44,569 nt of DNA from Escherichia phage SECphi4: sequence record MT331608. The stretch is one strand, 5' to 3'. This document shows, in pieces, positions 5,806-41,886 of the stretch (its first letter is position 1; each line of letters begins with the position of its first letter). The position numbers and the translations under genes were made by a program. The notes beneath the pieces are model-generated. The model was not told where the DNA came from, ran no database searches, and saw nothing but the letters and a program-made list of their open reading frames with translations.

Positions 5806-8097
5806 TTACTTCCTGTATCTGTACATAATGTCGCCTTCGGCGGCAAGGGGGAAGCCTTTCGCCCAAATAGGCAGGTCGCACATCAGCGCGCAAAGCTCCT
5901 CGGTCGTGTAGTCGTCGGTGTCCGGCACTTCTGTGATCAATTCATCATGCACCGATAGAACGATTTCATAGCCCGCAGCTTCAACGCCAGGCATGGACCA
6001 TGCGAGAATATCGCGGCACAACGCCTGTACGATGTTCTCCGTCAGTTTGCCGCCGTAGGTGTACTGGAACCCCCACTGGCGCGTCGTATGATTCTCGCCC
6101 TGATATTTAATGCGTGTGCTGGTGCGCTTCTTGCCGGTGTCCTCGTCAATCTCTGTCGTGACAGACAGCGCGATGCCGGGGTAGCTCATGATGCGCCCCG
6201 ACGGCAACTCAATTTTCAACCACCACCCAGCGGCGTTCGGGTCGTCGCGCTCCTCGTCAAAGGTTGGGTCGTGCTTCGCCTTCGTACGGACAATCTTGAG
6301 CGCTTTTCTACCGTCCGGGCGAACGTTCGCGCCAGCCCAGTATGCTTTACCCGGATTGCGGATTGCACACAACACCGCGTCCTCAAGCTCGGCCCAAAAG
6401 GCTACCGTCTTCGGGTGAGCCTCACGCCACATACGTTTGATTGCGTCACAAGTAAGCCATACGTTTTTCGGCAGTATGTATGTTGGGCGCTCGTCCTTCT
6501 TGCCCGGCTTCGGCGGGCGCTTCGCTTCGTTAATGCGAGCGTACTCATAACCACGTTTCGCCGCCGCCCAAATGTGATCGGGGAATGTGCCCTTCATCAC
6601 GTCTGCCATAGTGTAAAGGTCAAGGCCCAGGTTTTTAGCGAACTGCAAAAACGCGGCAACGCCGCCACCATAGCCCAGTCCCAATTCGCACGCCTTACCA
6701 ATCTGGCGTAAGTCCTTGCGGTTGGCTTTAATGTAATCCGGGTCAAGGCCGAACATCTTACCGGCAGTCTCGCAATAGATATCGCGACCGGCCTTAAAGA
6801 CCATTAACGCTGTTTTCTCGCCAGCGATCCAGGCAAGGCCGCGCCCTTCCACGTTGGAGTAGTCAGCTACGACAAACTTCTTGCCCTTTGCAGGGATGAT
6901 GCACCCGCGAACGGTAGAGGCGGTCAGCTTCGATATGTCATACGCCCAGTGCGCTGTCCCACGTAACAGGGAGTTGATGCCGTTGGTGAGCATGTGCGAC
7001 CTGACCCAAAAAGCGACGTCGCTCTCGCCTTCGCGGCGCTTAATCTTCCCTTCGTTGTCGTCGCTGTACTCGCCACGCGCTAGGTTTTGAGGTTGGAAGC
7101 CTTTACCGGCCCAGCGTAGCGTGCGCTTTGCCCCACCATACTGAAGACAACCCCGGCGGCGACCATCGGCAGACAAGCCATTGACGAGCGGATTGTATTT
7201 AGTCGATGCCGTTGATGACGCCCCGAGGCGCATTTCGATAAGCGCTTTGCCCTCGTCCGGGAAGTCTGGGTCTTCCAGTAGGTCGTTTAGCGTGGATTTC
7301 TGCGCGTTGTGTATTGTGAATGCTGGCGCAATATCACGCAGGATTGGCAGGAAGTCATTGCCGGTCAGCTTACCGCCAAATCGCTCCCAGGCTTCTTCCT
7401 TCAATTCTTCCTTATGCGCCTGCACCGCTCTGATCGCGGCGTTAGCCAGGTCAACGTCCACATAGAAGCCGCGGTCGTTAATCAACTGGTCTATAAGCAG
7501 GATTTCATCTTCCTTCGGAGTATTGCCCCAGTCCGGTATGCGCCAGTAGACTTCACGCATTGCGATAATATCCAGCGCGGCATAGCGCAGAAATTTGGCC
7601 CACTCTTCTGGGTGAGTCTCGCGAGTGTAGCGGCGGATTTTGTAGGTCTTAGGGGTAGGCTTACAGAACCGTTTGATCAGCGCCTTGCCCGCCTTATCCT
7701 TCGCATGCTCCGCGTCAACGCCCAGCACCTGGCATTGCATATCGAGGCTTCCGGGCAGCGCGTGGCGAAAGGCCATAATCATGGTATCTTCGATCTGGCA
7801 CACTGGCAGGTCAATGCCCCACTTCTCGCGAATGACCAGGCGGTCAAACAGAAGGCCGTTAGCCATCACGATTTTTGCTTTCTTGCGGGATACCTGGCGG
7901 AGCGCCTTGCGCAGTTCACGCGGCATTGTGGGGGATTCAGTGCAATCCCATGTCTGCACGCGGCCCTCGTCGATGGCGTAGGTGCAAATCATAATCTCGG
8001 TTGATGGGTGTTCTGCGTAGGCGTAAGCGCCGACTTTCTTCAGGTCCACATCGCTAAACGTCTCGGTGTCGAGAAACAGGCGTTCGAAGTATTTCAT
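5806..8097 (-). CDS. DNA polymerase I (family A) with N-terminal 3'-5' exonuclease domain
   Basis: 763 aa; Exo I motif FLDTET at the N-terminus; polymerase motif C LSVHDE near the C-terminus. Confidence 0.9.
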   Translation of the reverse strand: MKYFERLFLDTETFSDVDLKKVGAYAYAEHPSTEIMICTYAIDEGRVQTWDCTESPTMPRELRKALRQVSRKKAKIVMANGLLFDRLVIREKWGIDLPVCQIEDTMIMAFRHALPGSLDMQCQVLGVDAEHAKDKAGKALIKRFCKPTPKTYKIRRYTRETHPEEWAKFLRYAALDIIAMREVYWRIPDWGNTPKEDEILLIDQLINDRGFYVDVDLANAAIRAVQAHKEELKEEAWERFGGKLTGNDFLPILRDIAPAFTIHNAQKSTLNDLLEDPDFPDEGKALIEMRLGASSTASTKYNPLVNGLSADGRRRGCLQYGGAKRTLRWAGKGFQPQNLARGEYSDDNEGKIKRREGESDVAFWVRSHMLTNGINSLLRGTAHWAYDISKLTASTVRGCIIPAKGKKFVVADYSNVEGRGLAWIAGEKTALMVFKAGRDIYCETAGKMFGLDPDYIKANRKDLRQIGKACELGLGYGGGVAAFLQFAKNLGLDLYTMADVMKGTFPDHIWAAAKRGYEYARINEAKRPPKPGKKDERPTYILPKNVWLTCDAIKRMWREAHPKTVAFWAELEDAVLCAIRNPGKAYWAGANVRPDGRKALKIVRTKAKHDPTFDEERDDPNAAGWWLKIELPSGRIMSYPGIALSVTTEIDEDTGKKRTSTRIKYQGENHTTRQWGFQYTYGGKLTENIVQALCRDILAWSMPGVEAAGYEIVLSVHDELITEVPDTDDYTTEELCALMCDLPIWAKGFPLAAEGDIMYRYRK

Positions 8098-8264
8098 TGC
8101 TTTATCCTCACTACGGCGTCAGCGCTGCCGATCAGGGAGAAGATGCCGTCTGACAGGGCAATCTCTTCGCCGTTGTTGCGAATCTCGGCAACTGTGAAAT
8201 ATTCCCCCAGTAGCTTAGACCATACTTTCATCCCGACTTTTACTTCGCTGGCTTTAATACGCAT
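8094..8264 (-). CDS. Small hypothetical protein
   Basis: 56-aa ORF whose stop overlaps the polymerase start (ATGA). Confidence 0.35.
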   Translation of the reverse strand: MRIKASEVKVGMKVWSKLLGEYFTVAEIRNNGEEIALSDGIFSLIGSADAVVRIKQ

Positions 8265-8276
8265 TTTTCATTGTCC

Positions 8277-8304
8277 TATTAAAAAGCCCGCATTAAGCGG
8301 GCTT
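8277..8304 (-). terminator. Rho-independent terminator downstream of the SSB gene
   Basis: 8-bp GC-rich stem AAGCCCGC/GCGGGCTT with 5-nt loop followed by a U run on the minus strand. Confidence 0.55.
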
Positions 8305-8322
8305 GAATAGTGGGCTTTGCCC

Positions 8323-9048
8323 TTAACGGCGGCGACGTTTACGAGGCTTTTCATCTTCGTCATCGTCTTCGTCATCGTCGCGGCGCTTGGATTTTTTGGA
8401 CTTGCGCGGTTTGTCGTCTTCGTCATCGTCATCACGACGTTTTGACTTCTTAGACTTGCGCGGTGCTTCGTCTTCGTCATCGTCGCCCAGGTCTTCGTCG
8501 GAACATGAAGACCCGCCACCTCCGAAGGCTTCGCCGTCTTCACGGAATCGCAGACCCAGCAAGCCAGCCCCGAGACCCTTGCCGTTGGTATTGTTCCATG
8601 CCCAAATATCAAGGGACACGTTGCAATAACAACCGGAGTAGATCTCCTGGCCTTCAATCTCGTCGCCGTCGATGGTCAGACCTTGTTCAGTCTGCTTCTC
8701 GCCGAGTGACGTTTGAATGATTGGCTGTTTGAACGATTTGGCGTTGATGTACAACATGCCTTCGAATTCTTCGGTTACTTCGTCGCGCTCGTCACCGTCG
8801 CGCACTGCGCATTCCTTAGAATCCTGGGCGTAGTGGCGGTCCATCCACTTATCGGCATTCTTCTCGGATTTCAGCTTGTCGGTGAGCACTGCGCGCGCTG
8901 CCGCTTCCACTTTGTCCACCTGCGGATCTTCTTTATCAAGAAGAATCACGGCGCGGTATGCCGGTTTTTGTCCATCCTGTTTCGGGGTATCACGTTCCCA
9001 GATTTTCAGGAAGCATACGCGCACTTTTTTCAGGTTGACTTTAGCCAT
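8323..9048 (-). CDS. Single-stranded DNA-binding protein (DUF2815 / T7 gp2.5-like) with mixed-charge repeat tail
   Basis: MAKVNLKKVRV N-terminus and glycine-rich core typical of DUF2815; C-terminal tandem PRKSKKSKRRDDD(D)EDD repeats. Confidence 0.7.
   Translation of the reverse strand: MAKVNLKKVRVCFLKIWERDTPKQDGQKPAYRAVILLDKEDPQVDKVEAAARAVLTDKLKSEKNADKWMDRHYAQDSKECAVRDGDERDEVTEEFEGMLYINAKSFKQPIIQTSLGEKQTEQGLTIDGDEIEGQEIYSGCYCNVSLDIWAWNNTNGKGLGAGLLGLRFREDGEAFGGGGSSCSDEDLGDDDEDEAPRKSKKSKRRDDDDEDDKPRKSKKSKRRDDDEDDDEDEKPRKRRRR
8326..8490. repeat. Imperfect tandem DNA repeat (about 57-bp unit) encoding the SSB C-terminal repeats
   Basis: Repeated ...gacttgcgcgg...cgtcttcgtcatcgtc... units visible in the sequence. 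Confidence 0.7.
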
Positions 9049-17294: not shown

Positions 17295-17330
17295 AGTCCC
17301 AGTGAGCTAAAACTTACTGGGACTTTTTTA
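17295..17330 (+). terminator. Rho-independent terminator
   Basis: Perfect 9-bp stem AGTCCCAGT/ACTGGGACT with 12-nt loop followed by T6. Confidence 0.55.
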
Positions 17331-17620
17331 TGGATAAGCTAAACGAGTGGTTATTTGCCCTCGCATGTCTGGCAGGCGGCTTCGTAGGCGCACGCATTCA
17401 TGGCGAGGCTACGAAAGGGCCGCTAAACTTCGTTTTATATATCGTGGTCGGCTTCCTGTGTGCCATATTTGGCGCACCGGCTATTGCCGAGTGGGCTGGT
17501 TTGTCGGGGGAGCGCACTGTCGCCGGTTTGGGCTTCGTAACCGCAATCTTCTGGATGCCAATCGCCGACCGGATCAGGGAGACTATTGCGTCGTTCCGAC
17601 TTCCGGGGGGTGCAAAATGA
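17330..17620 (+). CDS. Holin-like membrane protein
   Basis: 96-aa ORF with multiple TM helices immediately upstream of the endolysin gene. Confidence 0.6.
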   Translation: MDKLNEWLFALACLAGGFVGARIHGEATKGPLNFVLYIVVGFLCAIFGAPAIAEWAGLSGERTVAGLGFVTAIFWMPIADRIRETIASFRLPGGAK

Positions 17621-17862
17621 TTATCTCCGTCCTGTTGTTTGTTATCATCGGGGCTTCGTCCCTGTTTAACGTGTATGCGCCGTCCGTCCAGGATGGCATT
17701 TTAGGCCGGGTGTTATATCTGCTAACGGCGATGATCTGCATTATCGGATTGTTGCAGACAGGAGACGTATCAGATACTACCTGGACCGCGTTAATCTGGC
17801 TGTTTGCATTGCGCACACTGCGTAATGCTGTTTTGAATGGGGTAAAACATGCGATTCAGTGA
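17617..17862 (+). CDS. Second small membrane protein of the lysis cassette (holin or antiholin-like)
   Basis: 81-aa ORF starting at an internal ATG, ATGA-coupled to the holin gene; two TM helices. Confidence 0.55.
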   Translation: MIISVLLFVIIGASSLFNVYAPSVQDGILGRVLYLLTAMICIIGLLQTGDVSDTTWTALIWLFALRTLRNAVLNGVKHAIQ

Positions 17863-18340
17863 TAACGGTCTACGATTTACGGCAGCATGGGAGGCTTTCA
17901 GCCCGGTGCCGTATTTCGCGACCAAGAAAGAGCAGGCCCGCGGCCTGTACACCTGGGGTTATGGGCATACCGGCACTAATCCGCCACGAAGCATTACCCG
18001 TGCGGAAGCGCTGGAACTGCTCAAGCGCGATGTGGCGTATGCAGAGGCCTGGGTGAACAAATACGCACATCCGAGCATTAACCAGGCGCAATTCGACGCG
18101 CTGGTTGACCTGGTAATCAATGCCGGTCCGGGTCCGATCGTACCAGATGACGTAGCGAATGATTTCGATGATGCGGTGCGACTGGGCGACTGGGCGAAGG
18201 TCCGTGCTACTCTGCCGCAGTTCCGCAAGCAGGGCGGGGAAGTGCTTAAGGGTTTGGTCCGTCGAGCAATCGGCAGGCAGGCGCTATTCGATGGTAAGCA
18301 GTGGGACGTTGCCGAGAAGATCGGACGTAACGCAGCATAA
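17849..18340 (+). CDS. Endolysin (T4-lysozyme-like, GH24 family)
   Basis: 163 aa with the catalytic Glu context and YGHTG / ITRAEA...LKRDV pattern typical of phage lysozymes. Confidence 0.8.
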   Translation: MRFSDNGLRFTAAWEAFSPVPYFATKKEQARGLYTWGYGHTGTNPPRSITRAEALELLKRDVAYAEAWVNKYAHPSINQAQFDALVDLVINAGPGPIVPDDVANDFDDAVRLGDWAKVRATLPQFRKQGGEVLKGLVRRAIGRQALFDGKQWDVAEKIGRNAA

Positions 18341-18356
18341 TACGGGGTAACACAGT

Positions 18357-18524
18357 ATGTTAAAAAGTATTCTTGATCATAACGCCGACGCGCTCGCCGC
18401 GCTGGCTAAAACCGAAGACCCTGGCGCACGCGCTATCATCGCCGACACTATCAGCCACGCTGGGGTCTTCGATGCGAAGCTGCCAAGCCCGCCACCGCCG
18501 GAAGAACCCGGCCCAGCAGCGTAA
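18357..18524 (+). CDS. Small hypothetical protein (55 aa)
   Basis: GGGG SD; proline-rich C-terminus; followed by a terminator. Confidence 0.4.
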   Translation: MLKSILDHNADALAALAKTEDPGARAIIADTISHAGVFDAKLPSPPPPEEPGPAA

Positions 18525-18532
18525 ACAATCAA

Positions 18533-18556
18533 GCCCGGATAATACCGGGCTTTTTA
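18533..18556 (+). terminator. Rho-independent terminator
   Basis: Stem GCCCGG/CCGGGC with 6-nt loop followed by TTTTTATT. Confidence 0.6.
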
Positions 18557-21981: not shown

Positions 21982-23502
21982 ATGACCGTTAACGTTGATA
22001 ACCAGCACCCACTTTATGCGCGCATCGCGCCAGAGTGGAAGATGATCCGCGATTGTGTAGCAGGGGAGCGCGCCGTGAAGGCGTGCGGCCCCTTGTACCT
22101 GCCTCATCCCGCCAGTGGCGACAATACTGACCCGAAAGCACGGGCGCGGTATAAGGCGTACAAGCAACGCGCTGTATTCCTGAACGCCACAGCCCGCACA
22201 CTTAACGCGCTGTTAGGCGTTGCCTTTGCGAAACCGGTAAGTCTGGACCTTTCCGGGGCAATGGCTGACCTGATTGACGACGTAGACGGCAGCGGTATGC
22301 CACTGCCGCAACTTCTGCGCGGTGCTATGTCGGAAGTGCTGCAATCAGGCCGCGCTGGCTTTATGGTGGACTACGACCGCCAGGCCCACTTTGACGAACT
22401 GGGTAACGTAGTGCCGCAGACAGCCGCTGAAATGGCGGCACACCGCCCGCTTATCCGCCTGTATACGGCAGAACAGATCATCAACTGGCGGCAGACCCAC
22501 GGCGTCGATACGCTAATTGTGCTGAAGGAAACGGACGAAATCAGCACCGAAGACCCGGACGACTTCGCAAACCACGAAGTAACAATCTGGACCGAGCTTC
22601 GCATGATTAATGGTGCGGCACATGCCCGCCGCTGGTTTTATAACGCTGACACGTCCGAGGTGAAAATGGACTTGCCGCGTGGATTTACCCGCACCGACCT
22701 TGTGCCGCTGGTGGATGCTGCCGGTAAAGCGCTGACACAGCTTCCGTTTTGCTGGTGTGGCGCGGTGGACAACAACGCGACACCGGACGCCGCACCGCTG
22801 GCGGATATTGCGTCCATCAACATTAAGCACTACAACGCCGAAGCTGACGTCGCCGAGATTGCGCACATCGTGGGCCAACCTACACTCATTGCGACTGGTC
22901 TGACCCAATCATGGGCGGACAAGAACCTGAAAGGAGGCATCGCGCTCGGGGCAACTAAGGGCGTTATCCTGGGCCAGAACATGGACGCCAAACTGCTTCA
23001 GGCGGAGGAGCGCAACTTGTCTGTTGCACTGTGTGAGCGCCGCGAATTGCAAATGGCTAAACTGGGCGCGGCCCTGGTTGAGAAGGGGACCGCACCTAAG
23101 ACGGCAACCGAGGCGGCCTATGATGCACAGACTGATAACAGTATCCTGTCACTGATTGCCGGTAACGTCGAGAAGGCTTTCAACCGTGCGCTGCAAATCG
23201 TCAAGCTGTTCACGGGCGACACCGCAGATCAACGCGTAACGCTGAATAAGTTCTACACCGAAATCACGGTTGACGCACAGCTTATGACCGCAATGATGGC
23301 GGGTGTGCAGACCGGTACGGTCCGTCTGGCGGACTTTATCAAGTGGATGATGGCCCAGGGCGTTATTGATGACTCGCAAACCGTCGAGCAGGTGGAAGAC
23401 GAACTGCGAAATCAGAATCCATTGCCTCAAATGTCCCCGGATGCGGTAGAATCGACCGAAGAAGCCCCGGACGAGGTAGCGGACAATGGCGAAGACAATT
23501 AA
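21982..23502 (+). CDS. Portal protein
   Basis: 506 aa directly after TerL with acidic C-terminus; assignment by synteny and size. Confidence 0.75.
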   Translation: MTVNVDNQHPLYARIAPEWKMIRDCVAGERAVKACGPLYLPHPASGDNTDPKARARYKAYKQRAVFLNATARTLNALLGVAFAKPVSLDLSGAMADLIDDVDGSGMPLPQLLRGAMSEVLQSGRAGFMVDYDRQAHFDELGNVVPQTAAEMAAHRPLIRLYTAEQIINWRQTHGVDTLIVLKETDEISTEDPDDFANHEVTIWTELRMINGAAHARRWFYNADTSEVKMDLPRGFTRTDLVPLVDAAGKALTQLPFCWCGAVDNNATPDAAPLADIASINIKHYNAEADVAEIAHIVGQPTLIATGLTQSWADKNLKGGIALGATKGVILGQNMDAKLLQAEERNLSVALCERRELQMAKLGAALVEKGTAPKTATEAAYDAQTDNSILSLIAGNVEKAFNRALQIVKLFTGDTADQRVTLNKFYTEITVDAQLMTAMMAGVQTGTVRLADFIKWMMAQGVIDDSQTVEQVEDELRNQNPLPQMSPDAVESTEEAPDEVADNGEDN

Positions 23503-24589
23503 TCAATATATGGCGGATCGAATGATTCGCCGTCACATCTTCACCCAGCGCCTGAGTAATGACCAGGCGCGGAGGGTGTTGGCTATGTGGGAGAAGTTCC
23601 GGCCCACGTTACTGGGTAAGCTGACCGAGTTGCTTGATGGTAAAAAGTCCATGAGCAACAAGGCGCTTACCACCCTGTTAACGCAACTCGACAAGACCGT
23701 CAAAACGGAACTGCGCACCGAGTTTAAGGTGCTGGCTGAAAGCCTTCAGGAGTTCGCCGACACCGAGGCCGATTATCTCGCCGACACATTAACGGCAGCG
23801 ATCCAGCCGGTGGTCGCCGTACCTACGGTCGAGGTGGTTGGCGTAGTGACCGGCGCGCAGATCGCAGCAACGGCAATGAAAAACCCGTTCCAGGGCAATA
23901 CCATGATGCAATGGCCCGACTCACTTTCTGAGTGGACCAGGACGCAGATCGGCAATCAGGTGCGCGCCGGATTCATCCAGGGCAAGCCAACGATGGAAAT
24001 TATCGCGGACGTGAGGCGCGCGCTAGGCGGTCGTAGTGCGCAAGCCATCTCAAGCGTTGTTAAGTCTGCAGTCAACCACTATGCGGCGACCGCCCGCGAA
24101 CTAATGGTAAAAGCAAATGACGATATTCTCGAAGGTCGCCAATGGTTATCTACATTGGACACGCATACTTCTCCCATGTGCCAGCTACGCGATCGCCTGT
24201 TTTATCCGGTTGATGTTACTCCCGACACCAAAGGAAAGCGCGGCGGGAAAGTGGTGGCTGGGTCACAATATGGCGCTGGACCGGGCAAGTTGCATTATTG
24301 CTGCCGGTCGACGGAGACGTGGAAAGTCAAGGGCATGGAAGATTGGCCCAGTGGTAAGCGTCCGGCACTGAAGGCTGACGCGGGTAGATTGCTGAGTGAG
24401 CAGGTAGACGCGCAGACTGATTTCTTCTCATGGGTGCAGCGCCAGCCGCGCCATATCCTGGAAGAATTATACGGAGTGCAACGCGCCGACCAGATTATGC
24501 GCGGCGTGAAAGTGCCGAAGATGTTCACCGATTCAGGTGAACTGATGACTATCGCACAGCTTAAAAACCGGGGGTTATGGCGTGATTAA
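23486..24589 (+). CDS. Head morphogenesis protein (Mu F / SPP1 gp7-like)
   Basis: 367 aa with WLSTLDTHTSPMC signature; follows the portal gene. Confidence 0.75.
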   Translation: MAKTINQYMADRMIRRHIFTQRLSNDQARRVLAMWEKFRPTLLGKLTELLDGKKSMSNKALTTLLTQLDKTVKTELRTEFKVLAESLQEFADTEADYLADTLTAAIQPVVAVPTVEVVGVVTGAQIAATAMKNPFQGNTMMQWPDSLSEWTRTQIGNQVRAGFIQGKPTMEIIADVRRALGGRSAQAISSVVKSAVNHYAATARELMVKANDDILEGRQWLSTLDTHTSPMCQLRDRLFYPVDVTPDTKGKRGGKVVAGSQYGAGPGKLHYCCRSTETWKVKGMEDWPSGKRPALKADAGRLLSEQVDAQTDFFSWVQRQPRHILEELYGVQRADQIMRGVKVPKMFTDSGELMTIAQLKNRGLWRD

Positions 24590-24911
24590 ATATGCAGCGA
24601 TTGGACTGGTTATCGGTCTGGCGGTAGGATTCTGGCTAGGTGACTCCTATCGCGCTGGCGTAGTGGCGGAGGCGGCGCAAGAAGCGCAAGCCAAAGCCCA
24701 ACGGCAGCAAACTAAAGTTGTGGAGCGCTCCGTGCAGGCCGAACAGGCCCGCGACGTGGAATACCGGACTATCACGAAAGAGGTTGTTAAATATGTTACG
24801 CGCCCTAACCGCCCTGATTGTAGTTTTGATGCTGAGCGCGTGCGGATCAAGCAACGCGCCGTTGATGCCGCTAACGGAGTCGGCACTGCGACCGCCGTGC
24901 AAGTTCGATAG
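24582..24911 (+). CDS. i-spanin (Rz-like)
   Basis: GTG start; N-terminal TM helix then charged coiled-coil region; contains an embedded lipoprotein ORF in another frame. Confidence 0.7.
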   Translation: MIKYAAIGLVIGLAVGFWLGDSYRAGVVAEAAQEAQAKAQRQQTKVVERSVQAEQARDVEYRTITKEVVKYVTRPNRPDCSFDAERVRIKQRAVDAANGVGTATAVQVR

Positions 24912-25023
24912 CCCGTCCGCGGACCCCGACGAGGATTTGATGATTGATGTGAAAAATATGGAATGCGGGGCGAAGCTAAGGGCGCAGGTGCTGGAGTTGC
25001 AGCAAATAATTAAGGGGCCGTAA
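24793..25023 (+). CDS. o-spanin (Rz1-like outer-membrane lipoprotein)
   Basis: Signal peptide with lipobox LSAC; proline-rich mature part; embedded in the +1 frame of the i-spanin gene; AAGAGG SD. Confidence 0.7.
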   Translation: MLRALTALIVVLMLSACGSSNAPLMPLTESALRPPCKFDSPSADPDEDLMIDVKNMECGAKLRAQVLELQQIIKGP

Positions 25024-25036
25024 TGGCCCCCTTTTC
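25014..25036. terminator. Bidirectional rho-independent terminator between convergent genes
   Basis: Stem GGGGCC/GGCCCC with 5-nt loop, flanked by an A/T-rich run upstream and TTTT downstream. Confidence 0.6.
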
Positions 25037-25037
25037 G

Positions 25038-25802
25038 TTAGCGCGGAATACCGCAAATCTCGTTGAGAGTTTTCACATCCAGCGCCACCGCCGTGGATTT
25101 TGGCTTGTCCGGGTAAGGGATGAATTGCTCAACTTCAGGCCATGCCTTAATCAGCTTCTTATCGGTATTGTGCATATCCAGCACACCGGTAACGGTCAAC
25201 TTGAATGCGTCATACTTCGCACGCAATTCGCGGCGGGCCTGGTCGTTACGGTCAAGGCGCTTACAGAAGTCATGATCCGCCGGGAAATCAGCACGGCAGC
25301 GTGGCTTATAGATCGGAAGCGATTTTCCGTCCTCGTCCACTTCACACACCGAAGCCAACATAACTTCCTCGAACCCCGGTACGATATCGCCGAGATCGGG
25401 AGATAGCTTATTCATGTATTTATACTCCCAGTATCCGCGATGTACTCGGTATTGGTGCCCATCGCCGCTCAATGACAAGGTGCGAACGTTACCGCCTGCG
25501 TTGATTTCGAAAGTGGCGTCGTAAACGCTGCCAATACCTTTGGGGCGGTCGGTGTTATAACTATACGTCGCCTTGTTGGTGTATACGCAGACGCCGTACA
25601 TCTGCGACGGGTCATCGTTGATTGCTTCGATGTGTGCGAATAGTTCGGCGAACGTATGAATGCCCCCCGGCATACAGTGCAACGTAATGTCATACGCCAG
25701 GTCGCGCGAGTCCGTCATGATTGATTTGGCTTCGGTAGCGATTTCGTGGTCGCGCAGAATGTTAGCCAGAATCTGGTTTTTAATGTCTTTGGTCAGTCTC
25801 AT
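25038..25802 (-). CDS. Opposite-strand hypothetical protein (254 aa) inserted in the head module
   Basis: ATG at 25800..25802 with GAGGA SD; own promoter upstream and terminator downstream; no recognisable motif. Confidence 0.6.
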   Translation of the reverse strand: MRLTKDIKNQILANILRDHEIATEAKSIMTDSRDLAYDITLHCMPGGIHTFAELFAHIEAINDDPSQMYGVCVYTNKATYSYNTDRPKGIGSVYDATFEINAGGNVRTLSLSGDGHQYRVHRGYWEYKYMNKLSPDLGDIVPGFEEVMLASVCEVDEDGKSLPIYKPRCRADFPADHDFCKRLDRNDQARRELRAKYDAFKLTVTGVLDMHNTDKKLIKAWPEVEQFIPYPDKPKSTAVALDVKTLNEICGIPR

Positions 25803-25832
25803 TTTTGTGTCCTCGTTGTTGGTGTGCAACCA

Positions 25833-41646: not shown

Positions 41647-41670
41647 AAAAGCCCCTTTCGGGGCTTATTT
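41646..41670. terminator. Bidirectional rho-independent terminator between convergent genes
   Basis: Stem AGCCCC/GGGGCT with TTTC loop flanked by an A run and a T run. Confidence 0.6.
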
Positions 41671-41886
41671 GCAGGTTGTGCTTTTGAAGTGGTCAACCGA
41701 CACATACTGGAAGTTGAATGGGTATCCCGCCCGTAACATTTTATGACCGTTAACGTCTGCAACCCCAAACACCGGGACCGAGTATTCCATGCCGCTATTA
41801 ATATATGTCGCGTCGCAGATTTTAGACGGCATATTGGCGCAACCGGACAAAAAAAAAGCCGCACAAATCATAATTAAAGTTTTCAT
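41665..41886 (-). CDS. Small lipoprotein (73 aa), candidate superinfection-exclusion protein
   Basis: Signal peptide MKTLIMICAAFFLSGC with lipobox LSGC; opposite strand to the flanking tail genes. Confidence 0.6.
   Translation of the reverse strand: MKTLIMICAAFFLSGCANMPSKICDATYINSGMEYSVPVFGVADVNGHKMLRAGYPFNFQYVSVDHFKSTTCK

Follow-up and report, generated by a model that had tools for sequence, protein, structure and literature searches.

A predicted spanin gene pair in the head module of SECphi4

The stretch of Escherichia phage SECphi4 DNA analysed here (MT331608; 44,569 nucleotides, hereafter referred to as the window) constitutes a Dhillonvirus genome. Two overlapping reading frames are flanked by the head morphogenesis gene on one side and by an opposite-strand gene on the other (Table 1); a preliminary description of the DNA had assigned them to an Rz/Rz1-type spanin pair lying in the head module about 6 kb from the holin-endolysin cassette. 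Both assignments held. The two proteins match Rz-like spanin families of the PHROG collection, the i-spanin is identical to curated entries, and the gap separating the endolysin stop from the i-spanin GTG amounts to 6242 nucleotides.

Table 1. Features of the spanin locus and of the lysis cassette of SECphi4 (positions refer to the window)
Feature	Position	Strand	Description	Evidence
Holin gene	17330..17620	+		phrog_2359, 1.3e-31
Second holin gene	17617..17862	+		phrog_2508, 1.2e-26
Endolysin gene	17849..18340	+		PF00959, 6.3e-21
Head morphogenesis gene	23486..24589	+	5′ neighbour of the i-spanin gene	phrog_241, 1.4e-116
Shine-Dalgarno-like GGGGG	24570..24574	+	7 nt 5′ of the i-spanin GTG	sequence
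i-spanin gene (Rz-like)	24582..24911	+	GTG start, 109 aa	ORF list, phrog_2536, catalogue identity
N-terminal transmembrane helix of the i-spanin	24585..24641	+	residues ~2-20	hydropathy
Shine-Dalgarno AAGAGG	24778..24783	+	9 nt 5′ of the o-spanin ATG	sequence
o-spanin gene (Rz1-like)	24793..25023	+	ATG start, 76 aa, +1 frame of the i-spanin gene	ORF list, PHROG
Lipobox L-S-A-C	24832..24843	+	Cys17 predicted to be lipidated, Gly at +2	
GC-rich hairpin GGGGCC-GTAAT-GGCCCC	25014..25030	both	between the convergent o-spanin and Nmad5 stops; candidate bidirectional intrinsic terminator	
Nmad5-domain gene	25038..25847	-	3′ neighbour, convergent	PF18757, 1e-56

The head morphogenesis gene, ending in TAA, and the i-spanin gene, starting with GTG, overlap by 8 nucleotides, and the GGGGG motif preceding the GTG is likewise given for the i-spanins of HK578 and JL1 (Kongari Table S1, PMC6139136). 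The i-spanin matches the PHROG profile phrog_2536, an Rz-like spanin family, at 4.5e-37. Its N-terminus, IKYAAIGLVIGLAVGFWLG, is hydrophobic, with a Kyte-Doolittle maximum over 17 residues of 2.09 at residue 1, and this single N-terminal helix is followed by a C-terminal part of 87 amino acids, 31% of which are charged and one of which is a cysteine. The previously described transmembrane helix was therefore confirmed by hydropathy, but the coiled coil that had been ascribed to the same protein was not, since Pepcoil reports none for the JL1 and EK99P-1 proteins, which are identical to the i-spanin, or for the HK578 protein, which is 95% identical (Kongari Table S3, PMC6139136). A single-sequence AlphaFold model of low confidence (pLDDT 58.6, pTM 0.18) contains two helices, one spanning residues 5-72 and the other residues 84-97, interrupted at residues 73-83, and about the fold it says nothing beyond a mostly helical protein.

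Overlapped architecture and start site of the o-spanin gene

The o-spanin ATG at position 24793 lies inside the i-spanin gene (24582..24911). The second gene stops at 25023, the first at 24911; 119 nucleotides are thus common to both genes and 112 nucleotides extend past the i-spanin stop. The o-spanin gene had been termed embedded, or nested, in the i-spanin gene; given this extension the architecture is overlapped and not of the embedded lambda type.

The o-spanin signal is MLRALTALIVVLMLSAC. At its N-terminus, MLRALTALIVVLM-LSAC-GSS, the protein combines a basic residue, a hydrophobic core and a lipobox followed by Gly at position +2, and the lipobox cysteine together with Gly rather than Asp at +2 is that of a predicted outer-membrane lipoprotein. 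Whereas the LSAC lipobox and the +1 frame are as described before, the label proline-rich applies only to the first half of the mature protein; as a whole, the mature part comprises 60 amino acids with 7 prolines (11.7%) and 3 cysteines. The profile searches returned two Rz-like spanin families, phrog_5672 (4e-26) and phrog_1267 (7.1e-12).

The annotation of several relatives suggests a different product. BMA1, StarDew and YD-2008.s carry a coding sequence of 159 nucleotides equivalent to 24865..25023, such that the second gene would encode a protein of 52 amino acids from an internal ATG, and this protein would have no signal peptide, would be no lipoprotein, and the pair would be no true two-component spanin. 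The short form scores equally well against phrog_5672, a profile of only 47 positions that covers residues 32-76 of the o-spanin. However, AAGAGG is located 9 nucleotides upstream of the ATG at 24793, and no ribosome-binding site precedes position 24865. Moreover, the first 24 codons of the longer frame constitute a textbook lipoprotein signal and are open, with the ATG and the lipobox cysteine, in 19 of 19 relatives, and in homologues with 30-46% identity the lipobox cysteine is kept though the signal sequences have diverged. The longer profile phrog_1267 aligns to residues 4-74, and both the curated catalogue and the record of phage KarlBarth have 76 amino acids. Truncated o-spanin starts are, according to Kongari et al. 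(PMC6139136), a frequent gene-calling error. We therefore regard a 52-amino-acid product as exceedingly improbable, and the start at 24865, although used by many records, was dropped in favour of 24793 on the basis of the ribosome-binding site, the conservation in all 19 relatives and the kept cysteine.

Conservation of both reading frames

In all 19 relatives, which share 81-98% nucleotide identity with the locus, both spanin frames are intact and have the same start codons and the lipobox cysteine. Before the overlap, variable sites among these relatives numbered 45, 23 and 11 at the third, first and second codon positions of the i-spanin gene, respectively, and past the i-spanin stop they numbered 23, 13 and 6 at the corresponding positions of the o-spanin gene. 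Within the overlap the distribution is mixed (16/17/6), as double coding predicts. Since the codon-position bias switches frame at the i-spanin stop and is mixed in the overlap, both frames are under selection at the protein level.

The same holds at larger distances for specific residues. Cys17, Cys36 and Cys58 of the o-spanin and its DEDL..DV motif are invariant among homologues down to 30-46% identity, where the alignment partners for Cys17 were the homologues of KarlBarth, K1G, SeF1, a further relative (L018) and an uncultivated viral contig (L022), and Cys80 of the i-spanin is invariant among the same divergent homologues. Alongside DEDL..DV, a second motif, KY..P.R..C.F, is conserved in the spanin homologues. 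Cys80 of the i-spanin as well as Cys36 and Cys58 of its partner lie in the predicted periplasmic parts; all three are invariant in six divergent homologues and may form homotypic intermolecular disulfides. Homotypic, disulfide-linked dimers are discussed as a general rule for spanins by Kongari et al. (PMC6139136), and the invariant cysteines of both proteins fit this rule.

Assignment to the overlapped spanins of Dhillonvirus

Among phage records, 157 matched the region; the top matches share 93-95% identity with it over 1.9 kb, and for the spanin locus alone identity reaches up to 99.4%. Among Dhillonvirus phages, EK99P-1, EP23, HK578, JL1 and SSL-2009a were placed with both components in the overlapped "Jersey" family by Kongari 2018 (PMC6139136), whose tables give an i-spanin gene of 330 nucleotides and an overlap of 119 nucleotides in the +1 frame, as well as an o-spanin of 76 amino acids with a mature part of 60 amino acids (Tables S2-S4). 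In SECphi4 we find an internal start, an extension past the i-spanin stop and the same 119-nucleotide overlap, and the i-spanin is identical in sequence to the JL1 and EK99P-1 entries (Kongari 2018 Table S1, PMC6139136). Compared to the five phages nothing material differs, apart from a few o-spanin substitutions relative to some of them, and the genome slot 3′ of the head morphogenesis gene is common to all. In line with this, KarlBarth, a phage of the BASEL collection, is annotated with an i-spanin and an o-spanin gene, the latter with the same 231 nucleotides; the annotation of this collection drew on the spanin database.

We therefore consider it highly probable that the pair is the two-component spanin of Dhillonvirus, that is, of HK578/JL1-like coliphages, in the overlapped arrangement and with a mechanism modelled on that of lambda. 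The function is predicted from sequence homology, from the signals of membrane topology and from the neighbouring genes. In the literature on "Jersey"-type spanins we found annotations and genome announcements only, and no knockout, lipidation assay or complementation. The pair, its overlapped architecture and its distance from the lysis genes are each already catalogued, annotated or remarked upon.

Neither of the two proteins matched the Pfam Rz or Rz1 families, or any other Pfam family, at E ≤ 0.1, and for this reason we claim no membership in the lambda Rz/Rz1 family. In terms of inferred mechanism and topology the two systems are alike, each combining a type II inner-membrane protein with a lipoprotein encoded in the +1 frame and having periplasmic cysteines. 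However, there is no detectable sequence similarity, and lambda Rz1 is wholly embedded in Rz, whereas the SECphi4 genes are overlapped. The SECphi4 i-spanin is shorter than Rz, with a short periplasmic domain and no predicted coiled coil, while the o-spanin is longer and less proline-rich than Rz1. Moreover, the lambda pair adjoins S and R, and the SECphi4 pair does not adjoin its lysis genes.

In phage P2, the LysB/LysC pair is located within the lysis gene cluster. It is the prototype of the overlapped two-component architecture and belongs to another family of the Kongari catalogue (PMC6139136). A precedent for spanin genes located away from holin and endolysin is provided by PseT.3/PseT.2 of T4, though these genes are separated and non-overlapping and belong to another spanin family, and the T4 holin and endolysin genes lie apart as well.

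A close likeness outside Dhillonvirus was found in the Guernseyvirinae (K1G, SeF1, Jersey and Schulenberg). Shared with this group are the PHROG families, the overlapped architecture, the slot flanked by the head morphogenesis gene and the scaffold gene, the cysteines and the DEDL..DV and KY..P.R..C.F motifs. Identity is only 38-46%, however, and the i-spanin of the Guernseyvirinae is longer (128 amino acids); in addition, they have a gene for a Hoc-like decoration protein between the head morphogenesis gene and the spanin genes, and no opposite-strand Nmad5 gene follows.

Lysis cassette and search for a second spanin

The typical, though non-defining, linkage of spanin genes with holin and endolysin genes is absent from SECphi4. 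The gap of 6242 nucleotides between the endolysin stop and the i-spanin start contains an exonuclease-like gene, the genes for both terminase subunits, the portal gene, the head morphogenesis gene and some small reading frames. The holin-endolysin cassette itself is flanked by hairpins at 17295..17324 and 18531..18552.

A separate spanin gene next to the endolysin gene would have contradicted the preliminary description. Neither inspection of the reading frames nor a six-frame scan of the window for lipoprotein signals revealed one. The sole reading frame between the endolysin gene and the next hairpin, 18357..18524, encodes 55 amino acids with neither a membrane helix nor a lipobox and matches only phrog_11068, a family of unknown function; it was rejected as a second spanin. 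The six-frame scan (44.6 kb) returned just two reading frames with a lipoprotein signal, namely the o-spanin gene and 41886..41665 on the minus strand. The latter, considered as another o-spanin or as a unimolecular spanin, is the Cor superinfection-exclusion protein (phrog_1119, 4.9e-28). A unimolecular spanin of the T1 gp11 type was likewise rejected, as the C-terminus of the o-spanin is polar and the other lipoprotein is Cor.

Predicted transcription units

On either strand the terminator pattern is recognised in the hairpin at 25014..25030, which agrees with the earlier statement that the pair ends at a bidirectional terminator, although the element remains a candidate. It folds with -14.9 kcal/mol (plus strand) and -16.8 kcal/mol (minus strand), and compared to shuffled sequences the z-scores are modest (-1.9 and -2.5, respectively). 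All 19 relatives retain essentially the same stem, two of them (L008 and L014) with single-base changes, and it persists even in front of unlike downstream sequence.

A pattern scan revealed no promoter-like site directly 5′ of the spanin genes. Given this result, the overlap of the i-spanin GTG with the preceding stop codon and the hairpins that bracket the holin-endolysin cassette, the late head-gene message is the probable template for the spanins, with translation coupled to that of the head morphogenesis gene. They are probably not read from the holin-endolysin message, which would form a unit of its own. The hairpins likewise suggest separate transcription units for the spanin genes and for the holin and endolysin genes.

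Spanins act only once the peptidoglycan has been removed, and the timing of their own expression is not critical. Since their action is gated by wall removal and not by the time of synthesis, expression off the holin-endolysin message should be tolerable.

Distribution and age of the head-module position

The position of the pair is not peculiar to SECphi4. Its arrangement is the same in every Dhillonvirus locus examined, and in BMA1 and L018, the relatives with DNA reaching back to the lysis cassette, the layout from the holin and endolysin genes to the spanin genes is identical. In the Kagunavirus K1G, the order is holin-holin-endolysin, terminase, portal, head morphogenesis, Hoc-like, Rz/Rz1, scaffold and major head protein, with 7.6 kb between endolysin and spanin genes, and in the Jerseyvirus SeF1 the spanin genes occupy the same slot of the head module. 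In the published gene list of the Dhillonvirus P78, numbers 31-33 are the holins and the endolysin, and the spanin, number 40, follows the endolysin at a distance of seven genes; the separation of the spanin genes from the lysis genes has been remarked in print for phage Schulenberg. By tblastn, members of the i-spanin family were recovered from 659 phage records, for the most part of Salmonella and Escherichia siphoviruses.

More distant homologues are present in uncultivated viral contigs, with about 38% identity to the i-spanin and 31-35% identity to the o-spanin. In one of these contigs, L022, the spanin homologues (phrog_2536, 8.1e-43; phrog_5672, 1.4e-19) directly follow holin-holin-endolysin and lie away from the head genes. 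This order ties the family to lysis, and the canonical cassette in distant homologues renders a relocation plausible, but an old one. The data thus suggest that the spanin genes were relocated to the head module in an ancestor shared by Dhillonvirus and Guernseyvirinae and not in SECphi4.

The preliminary description had attributed the split lysis cassette to modular reshuffling, in the sense that modules of this phage were shuffled recently and the spanins thereby gained a timing control of their own. The contiguous cassette of the distant homologues is compatible with such a move, and the hairpins around the holin-endolysin cassette, together with the one after the spanin genes, make separate transcripts plausible. 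However, none of the Dhillonvirus loci examined deviates from the arrangement, the DNA matching 157 phage records, and it is common to the Guernseyvirinae and therefore ancient: K1G has the same order, SeF1 the same slot, and the separation was noted for Schulenberg. No promoter-like site is present immediately 5′ of the spanin genes, and as spanins act only after removal of the peptidoglycan, a timing of their own is not critical; scattered lysis genes are also found in T4. A recent shuffle is therefore unlikely, and reshuffling cannot serve as a trait of this phage. As the position is common to Dhillonvirus, Kagunavirus and Jerseyvirus, the split is rather an old trait of the lineage.

The conservation of the slot across these three genera, as well as the predicted translational coupling to the head morphogenesis gene, could also mean that the pair assists head assembly or packaging at the membrane and has no lysis function. 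This reading is at odds with contig L022, where the homologues directly follow holin-holin-endolysin away from the head genes, and with the topology of the two proteins, since an inner-membrane anchor combined with an outer-membrane lipoprotein is the defining topology of spanins. In addition, the window contains no other spanin despite a full holin-endolysin set and a Gram-negative host. A role in head assembly or packaging in place of lysis is thus extremely unlikely, and we retain the spanin assignment.

Proposed mechanism and implications

The mechanism that we propose for the pair is taken from the lambda Rz/Rz1 paradigm. The N-terminal helix of the i-spanin would tether the protein to the inner membrane, and a largely helical domain of some 85 amino acids would extend into the periplasm. 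The o-spanin, translated from the internal start in the +1 frame, would be exported, lipidated at Cys17 and, because the +2 residue is Gly and not Asp, sorted to the outer membrane. Binding of the two periplasmic domains would then result in a bridge threaded through the peptidoglycan. Upon release of the endolysin by the holins and degradation of the wall, the freed complexes would fuse or disrupt the outer membrane and thereby complete lysis.

One might further speculate that the conserved slot in the head operon, with its translational coupling to the head morphogenesis gene, has been selected and is no accident, with spanin dosage tied to virion production and the holin-endolysin cassette gated on its own by the strong hairpin that abuts the holin start codon. 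Although we deem this very unlikely, outer-membrane competence and the triggering of lysis would, if it were true, be regulated independently in a large clade of siphoviruses.

The practical value of the analysis lies in annotation, namely in the correction of the o-spanin start. Many Dhillonvirus records, including some RefSeq entries, begin the o-spanin gene at the internal ATG, whereby the signal peptide and the lipobox are lost, and phrog_5672 with its 47 positions mirrors this truncated form. With respect to the evolution of these phages, the locus offers a clean example that spanin genes can stay stably in a structural operon over long evolutionary time.

Annotation of the o-Spanin and Neighboring Genes

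In many Dhillonvirus GenBank and RefSeq records, the o-spanin is given as a protein of 52 aa that starts at an internal ATG, and as a result of this choice of start codon both the signal peptide and the lipobox are lost. The phrog_5672 profile, comprising 47 positions, mirrors this shortened form; the full-length protein of 76 aa is present in the record of the relative KarlBarth and in the curated spanin catalogue of Kongari et al. 2018 (PMC6139136). Moreover, over its 3′ portion the spanin locus shows 97.5% identity to MG065648.1 (named Campylobacter phage A144), the match beginning at base 1 of that record. A Campylobacter host designation is surprising for a sequence that resembles Dhillonvirus.

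Features discussed in the text (SECphi4 coordinates unless stated otherwise)
Feature	Position	Strand
o-Spanin, 52-aa call (also at related loci L001, L002, and L004)	24865..25023	+
Hairpin following the spanin genes	25014..25030	
Nmad5 gene	25038..25847	-
Cor-family lipoprotein gene	41665..41886	-
Pre-holin hairpin with T-run, up to the holin ATG	17295..17330	+
55-aa ORF	18357..18524	+
Hairpin following the 55-aa ORF	18531..18552	
L022 lysis cassette	6721..8457 (L022)	

The head module, encoded on the plus strand, contains a single minus-strand gene, whose product is a nucleotide modification associated domain 5 (Nmad5) protein (PF18757, 1e-56) and which is not found in the corresponding slot of K1G or SeF1. 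Since the sequence immediately 3′ of the hairpin following the spanin genes differs in three related loci (L007, L009, and L016), the comparison suggests that this slot is a variable insertion hotspot. Likewise on the strand opposite to its surroundings, amid the tail genes, lies the gene for a 73-aa lipoprotein (beginning MKTLIMICAAFFLSGC) that hits phrog_1119 (4.9e-28), a profile of Cor superinfection-exclusion proteins.

Organization of the Lysis Cassette

In the uncultivated viral contig IMGVR_UViG_3300011551_000013 (L022), two holin genes and an endolysin gene (phrog_181) are followed by an overlapped spanin pair, which shares its PHROG families with the SECphi4 pair and is about 38% and 31% identical to it. 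Such a gene order represents the canonical contiguous cassette for this family of spanins.

Directly 3′ of the SECphi4 endolysin we observed a small ORF matching a family of unknown function (phrog_11068, 6.7e-39), whose product has a proline-rich C-terminus and no membrane signal. The label 'major tail protein' for its equivalent in the BMA1 record looks like an annotation error.

We further observed a strong 12-bp hairpin ahead of the holin (-24.1 kcal/mol, z -6.6), the T-run of which extends directly to the holin ATG at 17330, thus leaving no free Shine-Dalgarno sequence; the sole purine-rich stretch is a GGGA in the 3′ arm. The structure could be a terminator requiring antitermination, or it could sequester the ribosome-binding site and thereby gate holin synthesis.
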